The notes below the pieces were generated by a model. It made no database searches. It saw only the letters and a program-made list of their open reading frames with translations, and was not told where the DNA came from. The translations under genes were made by a program, and so were the position numbers. DNA of 64,000 bases from an uncultured Syntrophobacteraceae bacterium. Lineage in GTDB: Bacteria; Desulfobacterota; Binatia; UBA9968. Positions within the stretch are counted from its first letter, which is position 1; every line of letters begins with the position of its first letter. The stretch is from assembly GCA_964404195.1 (NCBI GenBank), contig CAYOJC010000002.1, positions 38,886-102,885 on the forward strand, read 5' to 3'. Shown one piece after another: positions 1-63,928 of the stretch.

Positions 1-841
1 TGAACTCGCCAAACGGCCCCTCGTTCATTTCAGCTCCCGGCTGCCAGTGTCCCTCGATGACCAGCTCCGCGTCCGCAGGAATCGGGAGTCCCGTCACCTC
101 GCCGCGGATGACCGGCATACGCCGCCCTTGAATGGCGCCGATGTAGCCGAACTCCTGGCTCTGGCCCAGGCTCCGCGGCAGCGGCCTGCCGCCGACAACC
201 GCATAGAGAGGATGCTGACCGAGACTGATTGCCACGGGAGCGGCTTCGCCGCGGCTGTGGTAGCCTTTCATATCGGCCAGCCCGTGCCGTATGGGCGCCA
301 TATAAATTCCCACCTTGCGCTTGTCGTGCAATTGAACGCGATAGACGCCGATGTTGAGCTGCTCCGTCTGGCAGTCTCGCGTTATCACCGCGCAGCCGGT
401 GCCGATGAAACGTCCGCCGTCCTTTTCGTGCCATCGCGGCGACGGGTATTTGAGCATGTCGATGTCGTCGTCGCGGTGGATTTCCTCCATCACCGGCCCG
501 TCGGCGACCCATTCCGGCGGAAAATTTTTGCACTCCGCTTCCCACTGAGGCATTTTCTCTTTGATCATGTAGACCAGTTCCTTGGTCGAGGCGGGGTCCT
601 TCTCGAGGCCCAGCGCGATCGCCGGCCGGATCGGATCTTCGCTCGCGTGGGTCACCGTATTCGCCGCGACGCGGTAGCCCTTCGGGTAGTCGACAATCTC
701 GTCGAAAAGAAGCGCGGGCGAGCCTTTTTTCTTGATCATCAGCTCGGTGATCGCGCCGATCTCCAAATCCCAATGGGCGCCGCGGACGACTTTGAGCTTG
801 CCGCGGCTGTCCACCTCACGAAGCCAATCGCGCAGATCCAT
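1..841 (-). CDS. UbiD-family (prFMN-dependent) decarboxylase, partial (3' end beyond window edge)
   Basis: Reverse-strand translation from ATG at 841 reads MDLRDWLREVDSRGKLK...RWHEKDGGRFIGTG...GPFGEF with no stop before position 1. It is clearly paralogous to the complete UbiD-like protein at 3483-4910 (same WHExDGGRxIGTG and FGEFTG blocks). It is absent from the ORF track because it is open-ended. Confidence 0.8.
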   Translation of the reverse strand, partial: MDLRDWLREVDSRGKLKVVRGAHWDLEIGAITELMIKKKGSPALLFDEIVDYPKGYRVAANTVTHASEDPIRPAIALGLEKDPASTKELVYMIKEKMPQWEAECKNFPPEWVADGPVMEEIHRDDDIDMLKYPSPRWHEKDGGRFIGTGCAVITRDCQTEQLNIGVYRVQLHDKRKVGIYMAPIRHGLADMKGYHSRGEAAPVAISLGQHPLYAVVGGRPLPRSLGQSQEFGYIGAIQGRRMPVIRGEVTGLPIPADAELVIEGHWQPGAEMNEGPFGEF

Positions 842-6106: not shown

Positions 6107-6571
6107 TCACTTGGAATTCTTGCTGGTCTCCACGACGGCCTGGACGATTTTTCGATAGCCCGTACAACGGCACAGATTGCCGGCCAGGTACCATCTGACC
6201 TCTTTCTCGCTGGGATGCGGTATCTTGTGAAGCAACGCTTTAGCCATCAGGATCATTCCCGAAGTGCAGTACCCGCACTGCGCCGCATCGTAGCGGGCAA
6301 AATTTTCCTGGAGGGGATCCAGCGGCCCGTCGGCCGCCAACCCCTCGATGGTAACGATTCGCTTCCCCTGGCATTTTGCCAACGGGGTCATGCATGAGTA
6401 GCGGGCCTCGCCGTCGATCAAAACCGTGCAGGCGCCGCAACCGCCGTGATCGCACCCTCGCTTCGCGCCCAAAAGATGCAGTCGGTCACGCAGCGCAGTC
6501 AGCAGCGGCTCCGACAATTCCGCCGACACGCTCTGCTCTTCGCCGTTTACGTCGAGCGAAATCTCAACCAT
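6107..6571 (-). CDS. molybdenum hydroxylase small subunit, (2Fe-2S)-binding (CoxS/XdhC-like)
   Basis: Two Cys clusters (CDHGGCGACTV and CGYCTSGM...CRCTGY). Start MVEISLDVNG lies 4 nt after the FAD-subunit stop, indicating translational coupling. Confidence 0.9.
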   Translation of the reverse strand: MVEISLDVNGEEQSVSAELSEPLLTALRDRLHLLGAKRGCDHGGCGACTVLIDGEARYSCMTPLAKCQGKRIVTIEGLAADGPLDPLQENFARYDAAQCGYCTSGMILMAKALLHKIPHPSEKEVRWYLAGNLCRCTGYRKIVQAVVETSKNSK

Positions 6572-7475
6572 GACGGTCGACCCCTTTCGCATCCCTTGCT
6601 TGCAAAACATCGATTTTCGCCGCTCCGGCAATAGCGTCGCGCAGCAAAAATCCGCACAACGACCTCTTGTAATCCGCCGAGGCGGTAAAGTGGTCCGTCA
6701 AGGTAAGCTCCGTGGAAACGATGCCGGGCACGGCCGCCAGCGCTTTGCCGTCGATTTGCTTTCCGATCAAAAATTGCTCGGTCCGCGTGAGAGAAAAATA
6801 ACCGTCGGCGCGCGCCCCGACGACGAGCTTCGCGTCCACGCAGCGCCCCGCGCCGTCCGAACGAATAGAGGCCGACGCGTTGACGACGGCCCAATCCGAG
6901 GCCGACCGGCGAAATTTCTTAAACTGAGAGCGGCTTCCCGGCGCCGGCCACGGCAGAAGAAACCCGCTGATGAGCGCGGTCTTTCCGAGGAGAGACTTCT
7001 CCGGTCCGCTCAGCAGATCGCCCACATCGATCGTCCGTATCTCCCGCGAAACCTGGACCACCGCCTTTGCCCGTAGCGACATGAGGGCGGGCACGATATC
7101 GATAATCGGAACCCCGCAGGCGACGGCTCCGCCCAGAGTCGCAGCGTTTTTGATCTGATCGGGCCCCGTGGCGTAGGCCGCCTGCACAAACGCTTCGAAT
7201 CCCGCGGCGCGAAACGCGTCGGAGCCAATGACTTTGTTGAGAGTGACCATGGCACCGGCTTTGATCGAGTCCCCGCCGTTCTCGATGGTATTGAGCCCGA
7301 GGCCCTCGAGGTCCACCACCGCTTTAATTTTCAGCAGCGCGCCGCGCTCTCGCTGTTCGTGAACGTAAGTTCCGCCGGCATAGAGCAAAGTCTCGCCGCG
7401 GTGCTCCTCCATTGCCGCGACGGCTTCGTTCAACGTCTTGGGAGTCAACCAATTACTGGAACTAAATCCACTCAT
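6564..7475 (-). CDS. molybdenum hydroxylase FAD-binding subunit (CoxM-like)
   Basis: 303 aa with a FAD-binding PCMH-type domain (LLYAGGTYV, AATLGGAVA) and a CO-dehydrogenase flavoprotein C-terminal domain. Confidence 0.85.
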   Translation of the reverse strand: MSGFSSSNWLTPKTLNEAVAAMEEHRGETLLYAGGTYVHEQRERGALLKIKAVVDLEGLGLNTIENGGDSIKAGAMVTLNKVIGSDAFRAAGFEAFVQAAYATGPDQIKNAATLGGAVACGVPIIDIVPALMSLRAKAVVQVSREIRTIDVGDLLSGPEKSLLGKTALISGFLLPWPAPGSRSQFKKFRRSASDWAVVNASASIRSDGAGRCVDAKLVVGARADGYFSLTRTEQFLIGKQIDGKALAAVPGIVSTELTLTDHFTASADYKRSLCGFLLRDAIAGAAKIDVLQARDAKGVDRHG

Positions 7476-7493
7476 GATGGTTTGGCGATTCTC

Positions 7494-10022
7494 TTACGGT
7501 CTCGTGTACCCGGTCGTCGTTTTTTCCTTCAAGGCGCGTTGAATTTTTTCCGCCGTAATCGGCAACTCTTTGACCCTGACGCCGATCGCGTTATAAATCG
7601 CATTCGCGAGAGCCGCGGGGACCGGAACGATCGCCACCTCCGCGAGTCCTTTGGCGGAGAACGGGCCTTCTTTATGAGGAGATTCCACCCAGAAGACTTT
7701 GAAGCAATCGATGTACGGCATGTCGGGAGCAGCGGGAATTTTGTAATCTCTGAAATCTCCGTTGAGGAGGCGGCCGTCGGCGAATTGCATCTCTTCCATC
7801 AAGGCCATGCCCACCGCCATACCGGCCGCGCCTTCGACCTGCCCTTCGGCAAGAAGCGGGTTGATGATCTTTCCACCGTCCACCGCGCAGAAAAGCCGGA
7901 GGATTCTCACCTCTCCTGTTTCCCCATTGACTTCCACTTCAGCGACTGCCGCAGCCGGCGTATAGAAAGAATTGACCCTTATATTGCCCGCGTTCGGGCC
8001 GGTGCCCGGATTACGGTTTGGCGCACCTCCCGCGCTCCAGGCGGGAGTCGCGGCCCCGGATAGCGCAGCCTCGCGTGCGCCCGTCGCGGTGGCCCCCTCC
8101 AACAAAGGAACTCCCGTAGTGGGATCCAGGGGAATCGATCTCACCGACCAGGTGCCCCTGCCGATAAATTCTTCGCCTTTCCTGTTGGTATGAAGGTACT
8201 CGATCGGACCGCGATAAGGGCCGTAATACGAACCGCCACCGAATAGAGCGCTGAGGTTGAGGACCGGCTCATCTTGTCCTTTGATGAATATCTTCGCATC
8301 GGCGTACACGAGCTCTTCGGGTTTGCTTCCCACCTCGGAAGCCGCTGCCGCGATAATTTTCGCTTTCAAATCACGAACGGCCATCCAGACGGCATTGCCG
8401 GTGTTGAACGTTTGCCTGCTGGAAATCGCCCCGCCGTCATGCACCCAGCGCCCTCTCTCGCCCGTATAGACATGAATTTTTTCTACCGGGGTTTTCAATT
8501 CTTCCGCCACAATCTGAGACATGACGGTTCGAAGGCCCTGGCCGACCTCCATTGCCCCGACGAACAACGACACCGTGCCGTCGCTGTGGATTTTGGCCTC
8601 CGAAGTCGCCGAAGTCGGCGCGGTGCTGTACTTTTGGCCCCAGGCTACGCCGAGCCCCTTTTTCCAGGGGCCCTTTTCAGTCGCTCCTTGACTCACCGGC
8701 CAGCCTATCGCCTGGGTGACGGCGTCGAGGCATTCGACGCTGCCGAAGCTTTCCATTTTCTCGCCGAGAATATTGGTGTCGCCTTGCCGCAGCATCTGGC
8801 GCTTCCTGTACTCGACGGCATCCAATCCGAGCTTCTCGGCAATGAGATCGGTCTGCTGCTCGATGGCCCAGGTCACGTCGGTAATGCCAAAGCCGCGAAA
8901 GGCGCCCGCCGCCGGCAGATGCGTGTAAACACGAAAAGCCTCGACCGAGACGTGGGGAATTTTGTAAGAGTTCGCGATTCCGAATGTGCAGTTTCGAGTA
9001 ACCGAAAATCCCGTAGAATAAGCCCCACCGTTCAGAATGACCCGAACGTCCCGGGCCAGAACGGAGCCATCGTTCTTCACGCCGTCCTTGACCTTCACTC
9101 TGAAGGCGTGCTTGGTAACCGTGAGGAACTCTTCTTCCCGTCCCAAGACGATCTTCACGGGGCGGCGGCTCTTGATCGCCAGAGCGGCGCAGATACCCTC
9201 GATCTGGCCGTCGCTCTTGCCGCCGAAAGTGCCTCCGATCTCCAGCGTCACGACCTGAAGCTTGTGCGGAGGAATTTTCAAGGTCTGGGGTATCAGGCTC
9301 AACACATGGTTCGGAACCCTGGCCGGGGACCAAACCGTCAGGCCTCCGTCGGGATCGGGCCGCGCGACGGCGCAATGCGGCTCCATCGGCACGTGCTGGA
9401 TCGGCGTGATCTCAAACGTGTTCTCGACAAAAAAATCGCTTTGCCGGAATCCCTCGGCAAGATTTCCCCTCTTGATCGCAAAGTAGTTGCTGATGTTGGG
9501 CCTGCCCAAGAAATCGGGAGTCCAAGCCGCTGCCCGCTGATAACTACTTAGATTCGGATGAACCAGAATCCTCTGCTTAGGATCCATCGCTGCTTCAGGA
9601 TCGAACACGGCCTCGAGAGGCTCGTAATCCACTTCCAGGCTGCGGATCGCCTCCTCGGCGCTTGCAGCGGATTCTGCGGCCACCGCCGCCACCGGTTCGC
9701 CCGCGTATCGGGCCACTTCGAGAGCCAGTAACGTTTTGTCAAAAACCCCGCTGCCGAACCGGATCGGCGGCAAGTCCAGAGCCGTGATCACGGCTCTTAT
9801 CCCTTTGACCTTGAGCGCGGGGCCGACGTCGATGGACCGGATGCGAGCGTGCGGATGAGGCGAGCGCAGGATTTTGCCGGTGAGCATTCCCGGCAACTCA
9901 TGATCGGCCGTGAAAACGGCCCTTCCCGTGACCTTTTGATCCGCGTCGACGCGGCGTATCGAACGGCCCACGTACTGTAGCTTATCTCGACTCCCGACCT
10001 GATCAGCCGAATTTGGCGCCAT
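7494..10022 (-). CDS. molybdenum hydroxylase large subunit, molybdopterin-binding (xanthine dehydrogenase/aldehyde oxidase family)
   Basis: 842 aa, with the N-terminal a/b hammerhead domain (VTGRAVFTADHELPGML) and MoCo-binding domains. It is first of an L-M-S gene order on the minus strand. Confidence 0.9.
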   Translation of the reverse strand: MAPNSADQVGSRDKLQYVGRSIRRVDADQKVTGRAVFTADHELPGMLTGKILRSPHPHARIRSIDVGPALKVKGIRAVITALDLPPIRFGSGVFDKTLLALEVARYAGEPVAAVAAESAASAEEAIRSLEVDYEPLEAVFDPEAAMDPKQRILVHPNLSSYQRAAAWTPDFLGRPNISNYFAIKRGNLAEGFRQSDFFVENTFEITPIQHVPMEPHCAVARPDPDGGLTVWSPARVPNHVLSLIPQTLKIPPHKLQVVTLEIGGTFGGKSDGQIEGICAALAIKSRRPVKIVLGREEEFLTVTKHAFRVKVKDGVKNDGSVLARDVRVILNGGAYSTGFSVTRNCTFGIANSYKIPHVSVEAFRVYTHLPAAGAFRGFGITDVTWAIEQQTDLIAEKLGLDAVEYRKRQMLRQGDTNILGEKMESFGSVECLDAVTQAIGWPVSQGATEKGPWKKGLGVAWGQKYSTAPTSATSEAKIHSDGTVSLFVGAMEVGQGLRTVMSQIVAEELKTPVEKIHVYTGERGRWVHDGGAISSRQTFNTGNAVWMAVRDLKAKIIAAAASEVGSKPEELVYADAKIFIKGQDEPVLNLSALFGGGSYYGPYRGPIEYLHTNRKGEEFIGRGTWSVRSIPLDPTTGVPLLEGATATGAREAALSGAATPAWSAGGAPNRNPGTGPNAGNIRVNSFYTPAAAVAEVEVNGETGEVRILRLFCAVDGGKIINPLLAEGQVEGAAGMAVGMALMEEMQFADGRLLNGDFRDYKIPAAPDMPYIDCFKVFWVESPHKEGPFSAKGLAEVAIVPVPAALANAIYNAIGVRVKELPITAEKIQRALKEKTTTGYTRP

Positions 10023-10069
10023 ATGCTCTCCGCAAAAATTATTCGGTCTTCGACGCGGGCCTGCCAGAA

Positions 10070-11170
<1,101 letters not shown>

Positions 11171-33313: not shown

Positions 33314-33907
33314 ATGAAAACGGATCAGTTGATTCAGCTTCTTTATGAGGCATTAGAAACCGAGATGGGCGGTGTGAAGGTCTATGAGACGGCAATACGC
33401 TGCGCCGTGAACGAGGACCTCAAAGAAGAGTGGAAAAAATACCTGGATCAGACCCGTAGGCATGAAGAAATCCTCCGGGAACTTTTGGGAAAGTTACAGC
33501 TGGACCCCGAGTTGGAAACTCCAGGACGCCACGTCGTGCGTCATATCGGAGAGTCGCTGGTGAAGGCTATGGATATGGCGCTGGTATCCGGCAAGCCCGA
33601 AGCCGCCCAAATAGTCGCTGCCGAGTGCGTGGTCGAAGCTGAGACCAAGGACCACTTGAACTGGGAGCTGATTGGCGAGGTAGCCAAAAAAATCAAAGGA
33701 GAAAAGGGGAAAGCCCTGAAGGAGGCCCACGAGCAGGTGGAGCCAGAGGAGGACGAGCACCTCTATCATACTACGGGCTGGAGCCGGGAATTGTGGATCC
33801 AGTCCCTGGGCTTGCCCGCTGTAATTCCTCCGCCAGAGGAAGAAAAGGATGTTAAGTCAGCAATCGGCGCTGCTCGCGCCAAGCAGAGTCGCACGGAAAT
33901 GCTGTAA
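33314..33907 (+). CDS. ferritin-like/rubrerythrin-like domain protein
   Basis: 197 aa with paired E...E..H-type helices (LYEALETEMGGVKVYE, EEDEHLYHTTGW). AGGAGGGG is upstream. The family call is tentative. Confidence 0.45.
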   Translation: MKTDQLIQLLYEALETEMGGVKVYETAIRCAVNEDLKEEWKKYLDQTRRHEEILRELLGKLQLDPELETPGRHVVRHIGESLVKAMDMALVSGKPEAAQIVAAECVVEAETKDHLNWELIGEVAKKIKGEKGKALKEAHEQVEPEEDEHLYHTTGWSRELWIQSLGLPAVIPPPEEEKDVKSAIGAARAKQSRTEML

Positions 33908-36923: not shown

Positions 36924-37160
36924 CTTATTCTCCTATGTTATTTGGCAATCGAAGCATCCCAACGATATCCCAGTTTGTCTCGGTGAACAAACCGGCGGCC
37001 CGTATGCAACTCCTAACTGACACAGAGCCCGCCGGGACTCGTTCATTTGAAAGTGCCCCGAGAAGCTGCTAGACATGCCGTAGACATTTCGTGGAGATGG
37101 AGTTCTCCGTTTAACCGCCCACAGGCTGATAACGCCTACTTTCATTCCGGAGGTAGAGTT

Positions 37161-38324
37161 ATGGAACAGCTCTGGTGGGACGCCTCAGTCTGGATCGCTC
37201 TCGCCCTGATATCCAGCCTAGTTTCTCTCCGAATCGGTATCTCCGCCGCTCTTGTCGAGCTGATCGTAGGAATACTTGCCGGGAACTCTTTTCATCTGCA
37301 AGTTTCCGAGTGGATTAATTTCCTCGCCAGTTTTGGCGCTATCATCCTCACGTTTCTCGCCGGCGCCGAGCTTGAAAGCCAGACCTTAAAAAGATTTTGG
37401 AAAGAAAGCCTCGTTCTTGGAATCATAGGTTTCTTTGCCCCGTTCGCTTTGTCATGGGCGGCAGCTCAGTTTCTCCTCGGTTGGGATCTCAGAGCATCCC
37501 AAATCGCTGGAATCGCCATGTCCACGACATCGGTCGCGGTGGTCTACGCCGTCATGGTGGAGACCGGGCTTAACGAGACTGCCATTGGGAAGCTGATCCT
37601 GGCCGCCTGCTTTGTGGACGATCTTGGAACCGTGATTGCCCTCGGGCTGCTCTTTACCAGCTTCGGAGTTTGGTTCTGGATCTTTATTGTTGTAACGGTT
37701 CTTGCGCTTCTACTTCTGCCGAAAATTACGCCCTTCTACCTTAAGCGAGTCAACGCGCATTCGAGCGAACCCGAGGTCAAGTACATCTATCTTGTCCTTC
37801 TCGTTCTCGCGTATTTGGCCGTGCGGGGCGGCAGCGAGGGCGTGTTGCCGGCCTATCTGGTCGGCATGGTGCTAGCCGACACCTTCCTCGCAAACAAAGA
37901 ACTCATCAGGCGAATGCGCGCGACCACGTTCGCCTTGCTCACGCCGTTCTACTTTCTCAAGGCCGGAAGCCTGGTGGATGTGAGAGCCGTGCTCACAGCT
38001 TTTGGCTTAGTCATCGTGTTCTTCTCGGCGAAGAGCCTGGCGAAATTTTTCGGTCTGTACCCGGCAGGGGTATGGTTCCGATTCACCACAAAGATCAATC
38101 TATATATCACGCTGATGATGAGCACGGGTCTTACGTTTGGAACTATTTCCGCCCTTTACGGGTTCACGCACGGAATCATCAACCGGGACCAGTACTCCAT
38201 CTTAGTCGTTGTTGTTATCTTAACCGCCATTATTCCGACACTCATAGCTCAGACCTTCTTCGAGCCCAAAGGAAAAGAACGCGAGGCTTTGTTTACGGAA
38301 AAAGGAGGAAAAGAAAATGTTTAA
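37161..38324 (+). CDS. cation:proton antiporter (CPA2/Kef-type membrane domain)
   Basis: Start MEQLWWDASVWIALALISS with GGAGG 7 nt upstream. About 12 TM helices and a Na+/H+-exchanger-family pattern. Confidence 0.8.
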   Translation: MEQLWWDASVWIALALISSLVSLRIGISAALVELIVGILAGNSFHLQVSEWINFLASFGAIILTFLAGAELESQTLKRFWKESLVLGIIGFFAPFALSWAAAQFLLGWDLRASQIAGIAMSTTSVAVVYAVMVETGLNETAIGKLILAACFVDDLGTVIALGLLFTSFGVWFWIFIVVTVLALLLLPKITPFYLKRVNAHSSEPEVKYIYLVLLVLAYLAVRGGSEGVLPAYLVGMVLADTFLANKELIRRMRATTFALLTPFYFLKAGSLVDVRAVLTAFGLVIVFFSAKSLAKFFGLYPAGVWFRFTTKINLYITLMMSTGLTFGTISALYGFTHGIINRDQYSILVVVVILTAIIPTLIAQTFFEPKGKEREALFTEKGGKENV

Positions 38325-38796: not shown

Positions 38797-39861
38797 CTAT
38801 TTCGCCCGCGCGACCGGCGGCATCCGGAATTGAACTCCTTCTTTCACCACCTCGGCCTCGTACATCGCGCGGATCTCCGGCGGCTCGTCCTCGTGTTCGA
38901 GCATGTGGCCGCCGTCGCGCTCGCTGACTGAAGGAAGCCAGTTGACGCCGATGCCGCGCAGCCCGCGGCGGAGAGCGAGATGGCGCGCGGCGTCGCGGCT
39001 GGTCGTGAAGTGGTGGTGATACCAGCCTTCGGGCGGAACCAGCAGACTCCCCTTCTGCCAATCGACGCGCACGAATTTTCCGCCGGGCGGCCACATCAAG
39101 CTGTATCCCTTGCCGCCGAGCACGATCACCTGCGCGCCCGCGTGATGGCGGTGCGCCTTTTTGTAGGTGCCGGACTTGATCGCCATGATGTGGCCGACCA
39201 TGGAATTACCCGAAAGATGAATGCCGAGACGGCTGAAGCCAATGCCGCGCTCGGGATGATCGTTCAGCGGCACGGCGTAAACGTCGGGAATAAAATTTAC
39301 CGCCTTGTCTTCGAGGTCGCTGGGCTTGAACTCGCTGCTGAAAAAATCGCGCTGGCCGCTGAAGCGATTGGTAAAATCGAATGGCGCGTCGAAAATAAAT
39401 TCGGCCGACTTGTAGATATTGAAAATCACCGGCGCGTTGTTTACCGCCACGAACCGCACCGGCTCAGACGACGAGCCGTTGAAATGCTGGTGCCGCGCGT
39501 TGAGCGGCGGCGAGAAGAGGCTCCCGGCCTGCCATTCGAGCGTAACCGCCGGCCCGCTCCCGTCGCTCCAAAACTGCGTCCCGCCGCGTCCTTCCAGAAT
39601 TAAAACTTGCTCTTCGTAAAGATGACGGATCGGCCGCAAGCTTTTCCCCGGCGGAATCTCCGCGACCATCGCGCCGACGAATCCCTGCGATCCTTCGAGG
39701 TGGCAGTAGGCCGCCGGCCCGCCGAGCCGCTCCCAGTGAGAAAGCGGCAGCGCGCGCAGGTCCTCGACGCCGTAGCCCGTCGCAACCGGCAATCCCTCGC
39801 TGTCGCACCATTCCAAGAACGGCGATTTTTTTAACGCTCTCTGCTTGGACAAGTTTTCCAT
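38797..39861 (-). CDS. bicupin protein (gentisate 1,2-dioxygenase-like cupin family)
   Basis: Start MENLSKQ with AAGGAGA 6 nt upstream. Two cupin barrels with His-rich motifs (ARHQHFNGSSSEPVRFVAV; KAHRHHAGAQVIVLGGKGY). Confidence 0.55.
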   Translation of the reverse strand: MENLSKQRALKKSPFLEWCDSEGLPVATGYGVEDLRALPLSHWERLGGPAAYCHLEGSQGFVGAMVAEIPPGKSLRPIRHLYEEQVLILEGRGGTQFWSDGSGPAVTLEWQAGSLFSPPLNARHQHFNGSSSEPVRFVAVNNAPVIFNIYKSAEFIFDAPFDFTNRFSGQRDFFSSEFKPSDLEDKAVNFIPDVYAVPLNDHPERGIGFSRLGIHLSGNSMVGHIMAIKSGTYKKAHRHHAGAQVIVLGGKGYSLMWPPGGKFVRVDWQKGSLLVPPEGWYHHHFTTSRDAARHLALRRGLRGIGVNWLPSVSERDGGHMLEHEDEPPEIRAMYEAEVVKEGVQFRMPPVARAK

Positions 39862-58438: not shown

Positions 58439-58660
58439 CTAATTTTTGATCAGTATTTTACAAACCCCTGTCCTGCCCGCATGCCCTACGGCGTCGAGCG
58501 CTCCACTCAGCGGATAAATCTTTTCGATCATCGGCGTGACGGCGATTTTTTTCTGCGCGAGCGCGTCGAGTGCCGGAGGAAAGACGCCGCAGCGGGAGCC
58601 GATGACGGTGATCTCGTTGACGACAAGCGGCGAGAGCGGAGAATTCTTTAGCCGCCTCAA
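58439..58660 (-). pseudogene. duplicated 3' fragment (about 73 codons) of the Zn-dependent alcohol dehydrogenase gene
   Basis: ...VVNEITVIGSRCGVFPPALDALAQKKIAVTPMIEKIYPLSGALDAVGHAGRTGVCKILIKN parallels the C-terminus of 59224-60177. Positions 58524-58620 are 97/97 identical to 59309-59405. Confidence 0.8.
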
Positions 58661-58817: not shown

Positions 58818-59168
58818 ATGACGATTAAACCGATCAAAACAGAGCGCGATTACCAGAAGGCGCTTAAGGAGATCAAGAGACTCTGGGATACCAAACCGAA
58901 CAGCCCCAAGGGAGATCGATTGGAGGTGCTGGTTACTTTAGTCGAGGCGTATGAGCGGAAGCATTACAAGATTGAGCCCCCCGATCCAGTTGAGGCCATA
59001 AAGTTCCGCATGGAACAGCTTGGGCTCAAGGCGTCGGACCTCGCTAAAATTCTGGGCGGCCGAAGCCGCGTGTCGGAAGTTCTCAACCGGAAAAGGAAAC
59101 TCACAGTTGATATGATGCGCTCGTTACGGAAGCGCTTGGACATCCCCGCCGAATCGTTGCTGGCCTAA
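58818..59168 (+). CDS. higA: HigA-like HTH antitoxin (COG5499-type)
   Basis: 116 aa. TERDYQKALKEIKRLWDTKPNSPKGDRLEVLVTLVEAYERKHY plus an HTH (GLKASDLAKILGGRSRVSEVLNRKRKLTVDMMRSLRKRLDIPAE). Confidence 0.7.
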   Translation: MTIKPIKTERDYQKALKEIKRLWDTKPNSPKGDRLEVLVTLVEAYERKHYKIEPPDPVEAIKFRMEQLGLKASDLAKILGGRSRVSEVLNRKRKLTVDMMRSLRKRLDIPAESLLA

Positions 59169-59223: not shown

Positions 59224-60177
59224 TTAAGACCTCAGCAAAATTTTTCGTGCTCCCGCCTTCCCCGCGTGGGCGACCGCCTCGATTCCTTCACTTAACGGGT
59301 AGACCTTCTCGATCATCGGCGTGACGGCGATTTTTTTCTGCGCGAGCGCGTCGAGTGCCGGAGGAAAGACGCCGCAGCGGGAGCCGATGACGGTGATCTC
59401 GTTGATCACGACGGGAGCGAGGGAAAGCCTGTGCTCTTCGGCGCAAGTGCTTTTGAGCACGAGCGTGCCGCGCGGGCGTACGGCGCTGAGCGCCGTCTCC
59501 AGACCGGAGCTTGAGCCGGTCGCCTCGACGACGATATCCGCCGATTGCGGCTTCCAGTCGGCGAGCAATACCGTGCGGACGCCCGCTGCCTTCGCTAGCC
59601 GCAGTTTGTCGGGATGTTTGCCGACGAGCGTCACGCGCGCGCCCGTGAGCGCAACGACTTGCGCGCAGAGGAGACCCAGCTTGCCGTCGCCGAAAACCAG
59701 AACCTCGCGCGTGAAGTCGATCTCGACCTGTTCGAGGATTTCAAACGCCGCGGCCAGCGGCTCGGTAAAAACCGCCTCTTCGTCGGAGACACCGTCGGGG
59801 ACCAGGTGAAGATTTCGCGCCGGCACGGCCACGGCTTCGGCGAAGCAGCCGTCCGCGCCGAGAATTCCCATGACTTGTCGCTTGGCGCAGTGGCGGCCCA
59901 GCCCGCGCCGGCAAAACTCGCAGCGGCCGCAGGCGAAGTTGATCTCGCCGACGACGCGCTTGCCCATGAACGCGGGCGGCCCTTCGACCGCCTCGCCGAC
60001 GAACTCGTGGCCCGGCACGCCGCGAAATCCCATGTAGCCTTTGAATATCTGTAAATCGGTGGAGCAGATGCCGGCGAGACGCACGCGCACGAGCGCCTGA
60101 TCGCGCACCGGCTCCGGCGACGGCTGCGACGCTTTGAGCGTTAACTTCTGCCCGTCCCAGTAAAGAGCTTTCATGGT
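59224..60177 (-). CDS. zinc-dependent alcohol dehydrogenase family (MDR superfamily) oxidoreductase
   Basis: Start MKALYWDG at 60177; the 5' part of track ORF 59224-60633 is Arg-rich noise. GHEFVGEAVE and CGRCEFC structural-zinc motif, plus a Rossmann fold. Confidence 0.8.
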   Translation of the reverse strand, partial: TMKALYWDGQKLTLKASQPSPEPVRDQALVRVRLAGICSTDLQIFKGYMGFRGVPGHEFVGEAVEGPPAFMGKRVVGEINFACGRCEFCRRGLGRHCAKRQVMGILGADGCFAEAVAVPARNLHLVPDGVSDEEAVFTEPLAAAFEILEQVEIDFTREVLVFGDGKLGLLCAQVVALTGARVTLVGKHPDKLRLAKAAGVRTVLLADWKPQSADIVVEATGSSSGLETALSAVRPRGTLVLKSTCAEEHRLSLAPVVINEITVIGSRCGVFPPALDALAQKKIAVTPMIEKVYPLSEGIEAVAHAGKAGARKILLRS

Positions 60178-60316
60178 TCCAAAAACTGCTTTCCTTGGCG
60201 TGCTTTGCGTCTTTGCGCGAGTCGTGTGGTGTTCCTTCGAGACCTTCGTGTCCTTCGTGGTTAAAATCGTCTCACCACGAAGAGCACGAAGTTTGATGCC
60301 TCCTGCTTGCTGAATC

Positions 60317-61159
60317 CTACCGCGACCACTTCGTCCGTAGCTTCGGCAACTCCTCGCCGTCGACGAAAATCGTCGTCTCGCGCTCTTGAAAGAAGCAGAC
60401 GAGACCTTTGATCTTCGGACACTCGGGAATCGGATCGAGATAGCTCCAGGCGAGGTCCGGAAAGACTTTGCCGCCGATCTCGACCGACCAATAAGACGCG
60501 ATGCCTTTATAAGGACAACGCGAGCTGGTCTCGCTCGACGCCAAAAAATTCTGCCGGATGTCTTCGAGCGGAATGTAGTAGCGGGTGGGATGGCCGGTCT
60601 CGAAGAGAAGCCGCGGCCGGCGCGTATCGGCAACCGTTTCTCCGGCGACCGCGACGCGCACGTGCCGCGAGCTTTGCAGCACGTCGACGCGCTTGTACGG
60701 ATCGCGCGGATGGACGAATATTTCTTCCTCTTCTTCGCGCCACGCGTCCATCAGATTCCATTGAAAGGCGAAATAGCCCCGGATTGCCGACGCCGGCGCC
60801 GGCGGGTCGAGATAACTCCAGGCTGCGTTTTCCGCGGCCTTTAAGCCCACGTGGATGGTCCAGTAAGAAGCGTCGCCTTTATAGGGACAATGAGTTCGAT
60901 GAGCCGTGGAATGCATGAAGTCGATGCTAACGTCTTCGCGGGGGAAATAATAAACCGGCAAGCACTTGCGCTCGCGAAGCAGCAGCGCGCGCTTGCTGTC
61001 GGCGATCGTCTCGCCGCCGAAATCGACGCGCACGCGCCGCGGACTCTGTTCGATGTGGATCCAGTGATCCGAATCTGCGACAGCGGCGTCCTGCGGCCAC
61101 TCGGGAACCATCGATCCCTCGCCGGGAACCGTCTGAAGCGGCTTTGCGCGGTCGGACAT
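60317..61159 (-). CDS. tandem DUF427 domain protein
   Basis: Two copies of the DUF427 pattern (RVRVDFGGETIADSKRALLLRE...CPYKGDASYW; HVRVAVAGETVADTRRPRLLFE...CPYKGIASYW). Confidence 0.7.
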   Translation of the reverse strand: MSDRAKPLQTVPGEGSMVPEWPQDAAVADSDHWIHIEQSPRRVRVDFGGETIADSKRALLLRERKCLPVYYFPREDVSIDFMHSTAHRTHCPYKGDASYWTIHVGLKAAENAAWSYLDPPAPASAIRGYFAFQWNLMDAWREEEEEIFVHPRDPYKRVDVLQSSRHVRVAVAGETVADTRRPRLLFETGHPTRYYIPLEDIRQNFLASSETSSRCPYKGIASYWSVEIGGKVFPDLAWSYLDPIPECPKIKGLVCFFQERETTIFVDGEELPKLRTKWSR

Positions 61160-61161
61160 GA

Positions 61162-61704
61162 TTAATTTTCTTCGCGAAGCGCTTCACCCTTCGCGACGGA
61201 GACCGCCGTCTTCGACAGTGCGACGGGGCTCGGGCGGTCCGACGCGCTGTCGCCGGCGTAAATCCAGCGGACGATCCCAGCGCGATCGACGACGAACGTG
61301 ACGGGATGCGAGATGAGTCCGGCCCAGTGGCCTTCGTTCGCGACGCCGGCCGCGCGGATCAATTCCGCTTTAGGATCCGAGAGGAGGCGGAGCGGATAAG
61401 GATCGAGAGGAATGTGCGGCCGGTCTTCCCGGCAGTCGCGCGTCACGCGCTCGATGAATTTTCTTCCCTCTTCCGCCGGCTCGACGCTGACGCCGAGGAT
61501 CTGGATCTTCTCGGGAACGTATCTCTCAGCTTCGTAAACGAAGGCCGTCACCTGGGCCCGGCACCACGGTCACCAGCGTCCGCGATAGAAAAAGACGACG
61601 GTCGCGGGAGCGCGGGAAAATATTTTTGGCAGCTCGACGGTCGCGCCGTCGATATCATCGAGCCTGGCGGAAGGAAATTTGTCGCCTATCTCCGGTCGGG
61701 GCAT
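61162..61704 (-). CDS. AhpC/TSA-family redoxin with in-frame TGA (61570-61572) at the first Cys of CxxC: selenoprotein candidate (UxxC) or nonsense pseudogene
   Basis: Frame from ATG 61704: MPRPEIGDKFPSARLDDIDGATVELPKIFSRAPATVVFFYRGRW-TGA-PWCRAQVTAFVYEAERYVPEKIQILGVSVEP...HPVTFVVDRAGIVRWIY. Cys-containing homologues read FYRGxWCPYC. The ATG is 4 nt after the upstream gene's stop. The track shows only the downstream GTG-started piece. Confidence 0.55.
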
Positions 61705-61708
61705 AAGA

Positions 61709-63928
61709 TCACGCGCCGCGCAGCGCCGCCAGCACTTTCTCCGCGGTGATCGGCAAGGAATGGATTCTCACTCCCACCGCGTCCTCGACGGCGTTGGCGA
61801 TCGCCGCCGCCACCGGAATGTTGGCGGTCTCGCCGATCGGCATGCTGTTGTACGGCCCGGCGCCCTTGGACTTTTCCATCACCAACGTTTTGAACGCGGG
61901 CACGTCTTTGATCGTGGGAATTTTGTAATCGCCGAAGTGGGTCGTCGTCACCTTGCCGTCGGAGATCATCAGATGCTCCATCAAGGCGTAGCCGATGCCC
62001 ATCATCGCGCCGCCTTCGATCTGCCCCTGGTGCATGAGCGGGTTGATGACCGTTCCGGTGTTGTGCGTCGAGGTGAATTTTCTGAGCTTCACCTGTCCGG
62101 TCTCGGGATCGACTTCCACTTCCGCAACCTGCGCGCACATCGAAGCCTCGTGAACTTTCGAGGTGTCGCTGTAGGCCGCCTCGACCGCGATCGGCGATCC
62201 TTTCGCTCTGACCAGCTCGGCATAGCTCACGCGCCGCCCGCCGCGCCTGGGCATCACGCCGCCCTTGGCGAGCGCGATTTGATCCGGAGTGGTCTTCCAT
62301 TGCTCCGCGGCAACTCTCTTGATCTCTTCGACGGCCTTGACGGCCGCCCGGTAGGCGGCGTTGCCGTAAACGCGCGTCGCCCGGCTGCCGCCGACGCCGG
62401 TGTCCTTCGTGCCGGTCTTGGTATCGAGAATTTCGACTTTGATCTGACTGAGAGGAACTTCCAACTCCTGCCCGATGATCTCGCATAGGAGCGTGTAGGT
62501 TCCCGCGCCCTGATCGAGCATCGCCGAAGAGATCGTCATCATGCCTTGTTCGTCGATCTTGATGGCCACGGTGCCCGAGCCGCCGTTCGGCGTCCATTGA
62601 ACCAGCGCGACGCCGCGGCCGACGTTCTTCGGCTTGGGTTTGTAAAAGCCCGCTTCTTTGAGCGCGCGCCGGAGCGTTTCTTCGGTCTTGATGTAATCGA
62701 CCTTCTCGCCCGTCGGATCCAGGTCGCCGTCGCGCATCAAATTTTTCTGCCGGAACTTGATCCGGTCCATGCCGAGCTTCTTTGCGACGAGATCGAGCTG
62801 GCTCTCGTTGGCGAAAAATCCCTGCGGATCTCCCGGCGCGCGCATGTGGCCGCACGGAATCTTGTTCGTGTAGACCATGTGCTCCTCGATGAGCACGTGC
62901 GGGATTTTATACGGCCCGGCGGAAATATGCGGCCCGCCCAGAAAGGCGTTGGGTTTGAATGCGCCGTAGGCGCCGCTGTCGAAAATAAAATGCATGTGAT
63001 GCGCGACGATCGTGCCGTCTTTCTTGACGCCGGTTTTTACCCGGACGATCGAGGCGTGGCGCGGATTTCCCGCGACGAACTCTTCGTCGTAGTCCATCAC
63101 CATCTTCACCGGCCGCCCGCTCTTCTTCGACATGAAGTAAACCAGCGCGACGTCCATGAAGTCGCCCTTGCCGCCGAAGTCGCCGCCGATATAGCAGGGA
63201 TGCACGACGAGCTTCTGGGAATCGATCCGCGCCGCGTTGGCGACCTGCTCGCGCAGGCCATACGGCACTTTGCTGCACGCCCAAATTTCCGCCGAGCCGT
63301 CCGGCGCCGTCTTGACCACGCACGAATGCGGCTCGATGTAGGCTTGATGGACCGGGTTGGTGAAGAAGGTATTCTCGACGACGACGTCCGCCTGGCGAAA
63401 GCCCTCCTGAATATCCCCCTTCTTCCACGTGACATAGATGAAGTCGTTGGTCGCCGCTTCCAGCTTGTTGGGCAAACCTTTGTAGCCCGGCACGTCGGGA
63501 TGAATAATCGGCGCGGAAGGCTCCATCGCCTTCTCTGGGTCCAGCACCGGCTCCCATTCTTCGTATTCCACCTCGATGAGATTCACCGCTTCCTCGGCGG
63601 TATGCTCGTCGTCCGCCGCGACCGCGGCGACTTTCTCGCCGATGAAGCGGACGAGGCCGTCGGCGAGGATCGGCATGTCGTAGAGCTTTCGGCCGATCTT
63701 GAGGCCGGTCACGTCTTCTCCGGTGAGGACCGCGTGAACGCCCGGCAGCTCCAGCGCGCGGCTCGCGTCGATGCGCTTGATGCGCCCGTAGGGAATCGGA
63801 CTGCGCAGAACTTTGCCCCAGAGCATTCCGGGCAGAGTCACGTCCACGGCGTAGACCGCTTTGCCGGTTACTTTGTCTTCGCCCTCGACGCGCGGCGTCG
63901 GATTGCCTACGACTTTTTTTTGCGCCAT
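61709..63928 (-). CDS. molybdenum hydroxylase large subunit (xanthine dehydrogenase/aldehyde oxidase family), second copy
   Basis: 739 aa with an N-terminal hammerhead (VTGKAVYAVDVTLPGML) and MoCo-binding domains. No adjacent FAD or FeS subunit genes. Confidence 0.85.
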   Translation of the reverse strand: MAQKKVVGNPTPRVEGEDKVTGKAVYAVDVTLPGMLWGKVLRSPIPYGRIKRIDASRALELPGVHAVLTGEDVTGLKIGRKLYDMPILADGLVRFIGEKVAAVAADDEHTAEEAVNLIEVEYEEWEPVLDPEKAMEPSAPIIHPDVPGYKGLPNKLEAATNDFIYVTWKKGDIQEGFRQADVVVENTFFTNPVHQAYIEPHSCVVKTAPDGSAEIWACSKVPYGLREQVANAARIDSQKLVVHPCYIGGDFGGKGDFMDVALVYFMSKKSGRPVKMVMDYDEEFVAGNPRHASIVRVKTGVKKDGTIVAHHMHFIFDSGAYGAFKPNAFLGGPHISAGPYKIPHVLIEEHMVYTNKIPCGHMRAPGDPQGFFANESQLDLVAKKLGMDRIKFRQKNLMRDGDLDPTGEKVDYIKTEETLRRALKEAGFYKPKPKNVGRGVALVQWTPNGGSGTVAIKIDEQGMMTISSAMLDQGAGTYTLLCEIIGQELEVPLSQIKVEILDTKTGTKDTGVGGSRATRVYGNAAYRAAVKAVEEIKRVAAEQWKTTPDQIALAKGGVMPRRGGRRVSYAELVRAKGSPIAVEAAYSDTSKVHEASMCAQVAEVEVDPETGQVKLRKFTSTHNTGTVINPLMHQGQIEGGAMMGIGYALMEHLMISDGKVTTTHFGDYKIPTIKDVPAFKTLVMEKSKGAGPYNSMPIGETANIPVAAAIANAVEDAVGVRIHSLPITAEKVLAALRGA

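Follow-up and report, generated by a model that had tools for sequence, protein, structure and literature searches.

A UGA-interrupted redoxin gene of Candidatus Binatia as a probable selenoprotein gene of the peroxiredoxin-like UxxC type, with a conserved hairpin behind the UGA

The sequence analysed here, called the window throughout, was a whole 64,000-nt stretch from an uncultured Syntrophobacteraceae bacterium (GTDB lineage Desulfobacterota; Binatia; UBA9968), corresponding to positions 38,886 to 102,885 of contig CAYOJC010000002.1 (assembly GCA_964404195.1); it had a G+C content of 57%, and all coordinates of window features count from its first nucleotide. Its minus strand carried a redoxin gene with a single in-frame TGA at 61572..61570, the frame ending with TAA at 61162, and this gene is a candidate for encoding a selenocysteine (Sec)-containing protein. 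The features of this open reading frame (ORF) were as follows, each with the evidence behind it (pN and pS are the proportions of nonsynonymous and synonymous differences):

61162..61704, minus strand: UGA-containing redoxin ORF, 180 codons including Sec45, plus stop (translation, Pfam, and orthologues)
61573..61704, minus strand: N-terminal 44 codons before the UGA, M1 to W44 (in-frame pN/pS)
61570..61572, minus strand: UGA codon, predicted to be read as U45 (orthologue conservation and alignment with Cys homologues)
61561..61572, minus strand: predicted redox motif U45-P46-W47-C48 (translation and orthologue alignment)

The ATG (61704..61702) was placed 4 nt past the TGA stop (61711..61709) of an upstream gene encoding 739 aa, and translation across the in-frame stop gave ...VVFFYRGRW44-*-PWCRAQVTAF.... 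An earlier note, drawn from the letters of this DNA, had given the ATG at 61704, the 4-nt gap to the upstream stop, the TGA at 61570-61572, and the flanking peptides, and its coordinates and reading proved exact. With the stop replaced, the resulting 180-aa product matched Pfam AhpC-TSA (PF00578) over the full domain (residues 6-147; E = 1.2e-23; 83.8 bits versus a cut-off of 26) and, as a second Pfam match, Redoxin (2.8e-15), which bore out the AhpC/TSA redoxin identity proposed in that note. Because the Pfam domain runs across the stop, neither half is a complete fold. The pre-UGA segment is either dropped by gene callers or called as a separate 44-aa ORF, and an exact database look-up of the window's own protein returned no record. 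The stops of 26 family-confirmed window genes were TGA in 8, TAA in 10, and TAG in 8; TGA was thus a normal stop, and genome-wide reassignment of it had not occurred.

A search over 5.8 billion proteins gave 344 homologues, the best 120 of which were inspected for length: 117 of these were fragments of 123-142 aa that started with MTAFVYE..., just past the TGA, and covered the C-terminal ~70% of the query, the pattern expected when gene callers stop at a UGA shared by all relatives and resume from the following GTG. DNA of the relatives (below, loci are numbered with L and database proteins with P) was taken from GTDB genomes and from JGI, ENA, and NCBI metagenomes, and the source metagenome-assembled genomes were labelled Candidatus Binatia, 'Deltaproteobacteria bacterium', or Syntrophobacteraceae. 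In 39 loci, which comprised 36 distinct sequences with 69-97% protein identity, the codon at exactly this column was TGA, and none of the 39 had TAA, TAG, or a Cys codon there. Five further loci had TGA at that column, namely L049 (67% protein identity), L046 (50%), L051 and L052 (both ~40%), and L050, giving a total of 44 loci that extended from 97% to ~40% identity. The earlier note had taken close orthologues uniformly carrying TGC as the mark of a nonsense allele; the opposite was seen, with TGA throughout and no close Cys orthologue. Judged from the aligned sequences, conservation of the TGA across orthologues is far above what chance would leave, barring one Leu and one Arg variant (see below).

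Coding selection was then compared on the two sides of the TGA. The 43 codons before it had pS of 0.672 and pN of 0.202, i.e., pN/pS of 0.30 in frame, and the shifted frames of the same segment gave 1.30 and 1.96; the invariant residues of this segment (F, P, F, A, V, and FFYRGRW) carried freely varying third positions; and codons +10..+100 downstream of the TGA had pN/pS of 0.19. Purifying selection therefore acted on both halves in one frame, which excluded the nonsense pseudogene that the earlier note had kept as its alternative and also disfavoured two independent products (see below). A few relatives that look decayed (L003, L011, L012, L040, and L050) would suit a nonsense pseudogene, or else a sequencing artefact, in the window, but the same TGA recurred in dozens of independent assemblies at 40-97% identity and both halves were under strong purifying selection, so that this explanation has next to no probability left.

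When 1.84 billion cluster representatives were searched exhaustively with HMMER, the C-terminal part gave only 111 relatives, mostly fragments again. The full-length Cys relatives were distant (at most about 45% identity) and displayed (F/Y)RGxW-C-xxC at the aligned column: Cys stood at the Sec column in P0168, P0172, P0183, P0189, and P0192 (the motif of P0172 being CxxS), and L041-L043 contained RGRW-C-PFC with TGT or TGC as the codon. The in-frame stop thus sits on the catalytic Cys column, as the earlier note had maintained; Cys forms of the kind it cited do exist, and its 'YRGxWCPYC' was close to the motifs found (FYRGNWCRQC, FFRGHWCPHC, FFRGTWCPSC, and RGRWCPFC) without being literal. 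Alignment to the peroxiredoxin (Prx) structures 2bmx and 5xbq placed the predicted Sec on Thr of the PxxxTxxC motif and Cys48 on the peroxidatic Cys; relative to these two structures, Arg41 stood in place of the Prx Pro, Sec45 in place of Thr, and His-Pro in place of the catalytic Arg (DRVTF versus HPVTF). Of the canonical Prx signature (PxxxTxxC plus catalytic Arg), Cys alone was retained, and the replacements around Sec45 and Cys48 therefore pointed to a thioredoxin-type UxxC site on a Prx scaffold instead of a canonical peroxidase site. No NCBIfam model matched the redoxin above its cut-off; the best one, SelL-related redox protein NF040769, reached 34.5 bits against a cut-off of 120 and covered residues 9-89 (the N-terminal half) only.

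The RNA following the UGA was numbered with U of the UGA as +1, and the elements considered in it were as follows:

61542..61559, minus strand: candidate core, nt +14..+31, of a bacterial selenocysteine insertion sequence (SECIS) element (synonymous constraint, folding, and compensatory variants)
61559..61555, minus strand: 5' arm GGGCC of this core
61554..61547, minus strand: loop CAGGUGAC
61546..61542, minus strand: 3' arm GGCCU
61530..61543, minus strand: CUUCG-UUUA-CGAAG hairpin, probably outside the element (covariation failure)

Codons +5..+9 (GCC CAG GTG ACG GCC) displayed no synonymous change in 36 sequences, four of the five being fourfold degenerate; among 93 columns that were degenerate and conserved in amino acid, only six had zero entropy, these codons accounting for five of them, and such a run was reproduced in 0 of 100,000 permutations. 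In codons +4..+9, pS was 0.041 versus 0.63-0.67 on either side, a 15-fold drop. At the nucleotide level, nt 14-32 were invariant in the 36 sequences save one U23C and one C26U, and in L046 (50% protein identity; contig with 52% G+C) the 30 nt after the TGA were identical to those of the window. This invariant block formed a hairpin with a 5-bp stem (G14-U31, G15-C30, G16-C29, C17-G28, and C18-G27) and an 8-nt loop (C19-AGGUGA-C26), the energy being -7.2 to -8.4 kcal/mol depending on context; GGU of the loop lay at +21..23, and GGU of Escherichia coli fdhF lies at +22..24. The variable positions 6, 12, 13, 33, 36, and 39 were all outside the hairpin, and a change of C13 to A even added the pair A13-U32 to it. 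Two divergent lineages carried changes inside the hairpin: (i) L049 had C13A, C18G, and G28U, which would cost two pairs in the original register and together gave a 6-bp stem (A13-U31 to G18-C26) with loop CAGGUUA at -7.2 kcal/mol and (ii) L051/L052 had GA replaced by UG at loop positions 24 and 25, making C19-G25 and A20-U24 pairable and leaving a GGU triloop. The nucleotide-level constraint coincides exactly with the hairpin, in which changes are offset by compensating ones in diverged relatives.

Folding of the whole region downstream of the UGA gave no gain over shuffled sequence (z +0.4 to +1.1), and therefore thermodynamics alone could not pick the element and comparative data were used. 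Other foldings were tried and rejected: (i) a lower stem C5-G9/U36-G40 (43-nt fold), whose positions 6 and 39 varied independently and made C-C in 13 sequences; (ii) a minimum free energy (MFE) hairpin that included the UGA itself and left conservation of nt 27-31 unexplained; (iii) a bulged-U hairpin (G8-U31 to G14-C26), which was the MFE fold of a 31-nt excerpt (-9.9 kcal/mol) and no better than shuffled sequence, with C13-G27 broken in 5 of 36 sequences (C13 = A) and in L049, two more pairs broken in L049, and the start of conservation at nt 14 left unexplained; and (iv) the CUUCG-UUUA-CGAAG hairpin, likewise drawable and no better than shuffled sequence, which had no comparative support: C30-G43 was lost in 28 of 36 sequences, the loop contained no G, synonymous sites varied freely, and the other changes were transitions at twofold codons that trivially kept wobble pairs. 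Hairpins (iii) and (iv) were the two offered in the earlier note; a SECIS-like structure downstream of the UGA was thus present in the form of the constrained hairpin, which is neither of the two. Rfam models, at gathering and permissive thresholds, matched nothing relevant to the element.

The conserved block also bears on the possibility of two products, namely that TGA is a real stop after a 44-aa peptide, that the C-terminal 129 aa are made from GTG 61551, and that the RNA block serves re-initiation or other regulation. Every automatic annotation does call a 125-135-aa ORF from this GTG, and the block overlaps it (nt +22..24), but a true stop would drift to TAA or TAG and TGA was kept in all sequences; moreover, the Pfam domain spans the stop, neither piece makes a complete thioredoxin fold, the C-terminal piece would be devoid of a redox motif, and the supposed start GTG is GTT in L051 and GCG in L011. 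Two separate products are hence very improbable.

Three database proteins (P0001, P0003, and P0044) were 'full-length', and none of them was a Cys form; their residues at the Sec column were Leu, Trp, and Arg, respectively, each one nucleotide from TGA. P0003 (L049 295..834; JGI Ga0633541_02393377) had Trp in the protein and TGA in the DNA, and the Trp is evidently an annotation artefact of a TGA=Trp code that masks a selenoprotein. For P0001, the TTA (Leu) at the Sec column was genuine, two independent samples containing it (L047 1247..1798 and L048 828..1379); its ORF was intact, and it additionally contained the stem-breaking change G16A in the hairpin and a nearby Tyr-to-Asp replacement, i.e., a variant that no longer needs a SECIS element has its stem broken. 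This Leu variant may represent a redox-dead paralogue or a recent loss. For P0044, Arg at the Sec column was read from the protein record alone.

Taken together, the comparative data make it highly probable that 61704..61162 is a genuine gene for a Sec-encoding Prx-like thiol:disulfide oxidoreductase, with Sec45-Pro-Trp-Cys48 as its redox motif. From this gene we infer Sec insertion at the UGA, SelB, Sec-tRNA(Sec), and sel genes in the genome, and the kind of substrate. The UGA at 61572..61570 would be recoded to Sec by the standard bacterial route: the coding-region hairpin at nt +14..+31 (GGGCC/GGCCU stem and GGU loop) would be bound by SelB together with Sec-tRNA(Sec), and SelB would hand Sec to the ribosome paused at the UGA. 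In the finished protein, Sec at the N-terminal nucleophile position of CxxC (the Thr position of Prx TxxC) would attack an oxidised substrate, which may be a disulfide, a sulfenate, or a peroxide, and a selenenylsulfide would then be formed with Cys48 and resolved by a thiol reductant.

Several observations weigh against a Sec-encoding gene, and they concern the relatives, the hairpin, and the Sec machinery. Damaged copies occurred among the relatives: L003/L034 (one contig; 9893..10375) and L040 (524..952) had N-terminal frameshifts, L011 (489..826) had U23C in the hairpin plus an early stop, L050 (1441..1923) had a 2-nt deletion within the hairpin, L012 (10001..10240) was reduced to a C-terminal remnant, and the active-site segment was absent from P0088 (in-frame deletion) and P0137. 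These look like occasional decay, which may be lineage-specific, or assembly errors amid strong conservation. The hairpin is small and, taken by itself, did not exceed shuffled GC-rich sequence in stability (z -0.8 to 0.0), and its covariation was confined to the two divergent lineages because the element is nearly invariant. Bacterial SECIS rules ask for an upper stem of 4-16 bp, an apical loop of 3-9 nt, MFE of -7.5 kcal/mol or lower, G (usually GG or GU) in the first two loop positions, and 16-37 nt from the UGA to the loop (PMC13188914). The stem (5-6 bp) and the loop (8 nt, 7 nt in L049, and 3 nt in L051) fell within these ranges, and the energy was marginal; with the 8-nt loop, GGU occupied loop positions 3-5 at a spacing of 15 nt. 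Closure of the loop by C19-G24 (loop AGGU) would bring G to position 2 and the spacing to 16 nt, and the predicted GGU loop of L051 has a spacing of 17 nt. Agreement with the rules in G position and spacing was thus marginal, at their edges only. With respect to the machinery, ARAGORN found no tRNA-Sec in the window or the 39 loci, tblastn with E. coli SelA, SelB, and SelD found no counterpart in 354 kb (the window plus ~290 kb of related loci), and Pfam/NCBIfam assigned none of the 29 window ORFs to a sel family; the sel-gene search over these 354 kb is uninformative because the genomes are several megabases long. Literature linking Binatia/Binatota with selenocysteine or selenoproteins was not found either, beyond one irrelevant mention in a reference list.

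A second Sec/Cys pair was recognized in related loci. An OsmC-family gene (Pfam 1e-13), absent from the window, was located in L006 and L018 between the Prx-like gene and a gene resembling the xanthine dehydrogenase (XDH) family, and it read ...YFVAAVGF-U-MFSQ... with an in-frame TGA (L006 9443..9991 with TGA at 9692; L018 2428..2976 with TGA at 2677). Its orthologues had TGC or TGT at that codon (L009 9645, L010 4387, and L029 1973; ...GF-C-MFSQ...). A strong hairpin, CUGACGCG-GUA-CGCGUC(G/A)G, followed the codon in the TGA forms only (about -19 kcal/mol over 57 nt), its GGU lay at +23..25, and a U.G to U-A change between L006 and L018 kept the pair. OsmC-like selenoproteins are a catalogued family (PMC13188914). 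The OsmC Sec/Cys pair, together with the redoxin, indicates Candidatus Binatia as users of selenocysteine. Separately, the window was screened for other TGA-interrupted ORFs with SECIS-like hairpins: seven candidates were obtained and none was credible, most being antisense or out of frame in confirmed genes (the one inspected in detail, at 33859, was antisense to a real gene).

Sec-independent read-through is the alternative to which the missing machinery, the marginal fit to the bacterial SECIS rules, and the natural Leu or Arg variants with intact ORFs lend some weight: the UGA would be decoded by a near-cognate or suppressor tRNA (Trp, Cys, Arg, or Gly), the hairpin would act as a generic stimulator, and a selenium-free full-length product would result. 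The column, however, is that of the catalytic CxxC Cys in homologues, and hence the active site would be lost with any residue but Cys or Sec; if Cys were required there, TGC could readily have been fixed, and 0 of more than 40 sequences have it; GGU, the loop motif recognised by SelB in E. coli fdhF, is retained here and lies almost as far from the UGA as in fdhF; and the neighbouring OsmC gene alternates between TGA and Cys codons likewise, with a GGU-topped hairpin. Read-through of this kind is accordingly unlikely, and decoding of the UGA as Sec remains the preferred reading.

The genes flanking the predicted selenoprotein gene in the window were as follows:

61709..63928, minus strand: gene of 739 aa for a molybdopterin-binding subunit of the XDH/aldehyde oxidase family (Pfam in orthologous loci)
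60317..61159, minus strand: tandem DUF427 (NTP_transf_9) gene, starting 2 nt past the stop of the predicted selenoprotein gene (Pfam)
about 59224..60279, minus strand: Zn-dependent alcohol dehydrogenase (Zn-ADH) gene, following the DUF427 gene (domain annotation)

The XDH-family gene carried the domains Ald_Xan_dh_C, MoCoBD_1, and MoCoBD_2 in orthologous loci, and its NCBIfam scores in the window were below every equivalog cut-off, including that of 'selenium-dependent XDH'. In most loci with enough flank it immediately preceded the Prx-like gene, and since its stop precedes the start of the latter by 4 nt, the two genes are probably co-transcribed. Downstream synteny with the DUF427 and Zn-ADH genes was confined to closer relatives. 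Any functional link between the XDH-family gene and the redoxin is conjecture; as a rather doubtful proposal, the Sec-redoxin could serve the XDH-family molybdenum hydroxylase as a dedicated partner instead of acting as an antioxidant enzyme of its own, the two forming in Binatia a molybdoenzyme plus selenoprotein module for peroxide or thiol repair, in some members with a Sec/Cys OsmC. If this were true, the selenoprotein would clear the H2O2 or organic peroxide that the oxidase produces, or would return a sulfur or selenium species of an active site to its reduced state, and Sec would have become fixed, together with an unusually frozen SECIS element, in a clade not so far reported to use selenium.

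Additional observations were made around these genes and elsewhere in the window. A tRNA-Asn (GTT) gene was located just upstream of the XDH-family gene in many loci (L003 7563..7638 and L004 7667..7742, and at the same conserved position in L005, L007, L012, L016, L020, L023, L033, L034, L036, and L039); the equivalent place in the window would fall just beyond 64000. The last ~70 codons of the Zn-ADH gene were duplicated ~0.8 kb downstream (58439..58660 versus 59224..59440, minus strand; ...VVNEITVIGSRCGVFPPALDALAQKKIAVTPMIEK...), a plus-strand ORF of 116 aa (58818..59168; MTIKPIKTERDYQKALKEIKRLWD...) lay between the two copies of the gene end, and the arrangement looks like an insertion that copied this end. 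A second XDH-family pair was present at 6564..10022 on the minus strand, composed of an FAD-binding subunit (6564..7475) and an 842-aa molybdenum-cofactor subunit (7494..10022) and adjoined by UbiD-family decarboxylase and ABC-transporter genes. A fluoride riboswitch (crcB motif, RF01734; 53.7 bits; E = 4.6e-12) was detected at 37084..37145 on the plus strand, at the 5' end of an ORF with a Na_H_Exchanger domain (37047..38324).

With the UGA read as Sec, a lineage widespread in soil and groundwater would regain a complete redox enzyme, whose active site is missing from 117 of the 120 best database entries. Specific to the window gene are its Binatia host, the predicted fixation of Sec without a close Cys orthologue, the frozen candidate SECIS element, and near-universal mis-annotation. 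This element is sharply delimited, with 18 nt frozen across 50% protein divergence and two natural compensatory variants, and it could be a compact test case for SelB-SECIS recognition outside enterobacteria.

The predicted selenoprotein was finally compared with known systems. The Prx-like selenoprotein family was reportedly predicted by Kryukov, Zhang and Gladyshev. Thiol:disulfide oxidoreductase selenoproteins of the Prx-like 1 type (PF00578, UxxC) are computational predictions and abound in marine metagenomes (PMC13188914; PMC2398784), and Prx-like proteins in the Global Ocean Sampling (GOS) marine metagenome data comprised 225 Sec sequences and 2,740 Cys homologues (PMC2398784). The window protein and Prx-like 1 shared the PF00578 fold, the predicted Sec as the first residue of UxxC at the CxxC position, a SECIS-like hairpin after the UGA, the existence of Cys homologues, and a function that is predicted only, but the window subfamily (FFYRGRW-U-PWCRAQVTAF) came from soil and groundwater Binatia, had no close Cys orthologue, and was usually linked to an XDH-family molybdoenzyme gene; this comparison was made with the family description. 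The redoxin fits the defining features of the Prx-like UxxC family and is best filed there as a further member, and no new category is opened, computational surveys having described Prx-like UxxC selenoproteins since 2004-2008.

In the SECIS element of E. coli fdhF, G23/U24 and the bulged U17 have roles in SelB-SECIS recognition. The fdhF sequence, verified in 5,419 genomes, and the window hairpin shared a short GC-containing stem within the coding region and AGGU in the apical loop, with CAGGU at +20..24 in fdhF and +19..23 in the window; the window hairpin differed in its stem sequence, the lack of a bulged U, a position one nucleotide nearer to the UGA, and a loop of 8 nt (or 4 nt plus a 2-nt bulge) instead of 6 nt. 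Three further comparisons were made: (i) canonical peroxiredoxins had the same fold and domain model, with Cys48 on their peroxidatic Cys, while their Pro, Thr, and catalytic Arg were not kept in the window protein; (ii) the selenoprotein form of Prx has TxxU in PF00578 (PMC13188914), its Sec being peroxidatic, while the predicted Sec of the window protein stands at the Thr position; and (iii) SelL, a eukaryotic Prx-like UxxU selenoprotein (PMC2398784), represented here by the best NCBIfam match NF040769, shared the Prx-like scaffold and a redox motif at the same place, which is predicted to be UxxC in the window protein as opposed to UxxU in SelL.

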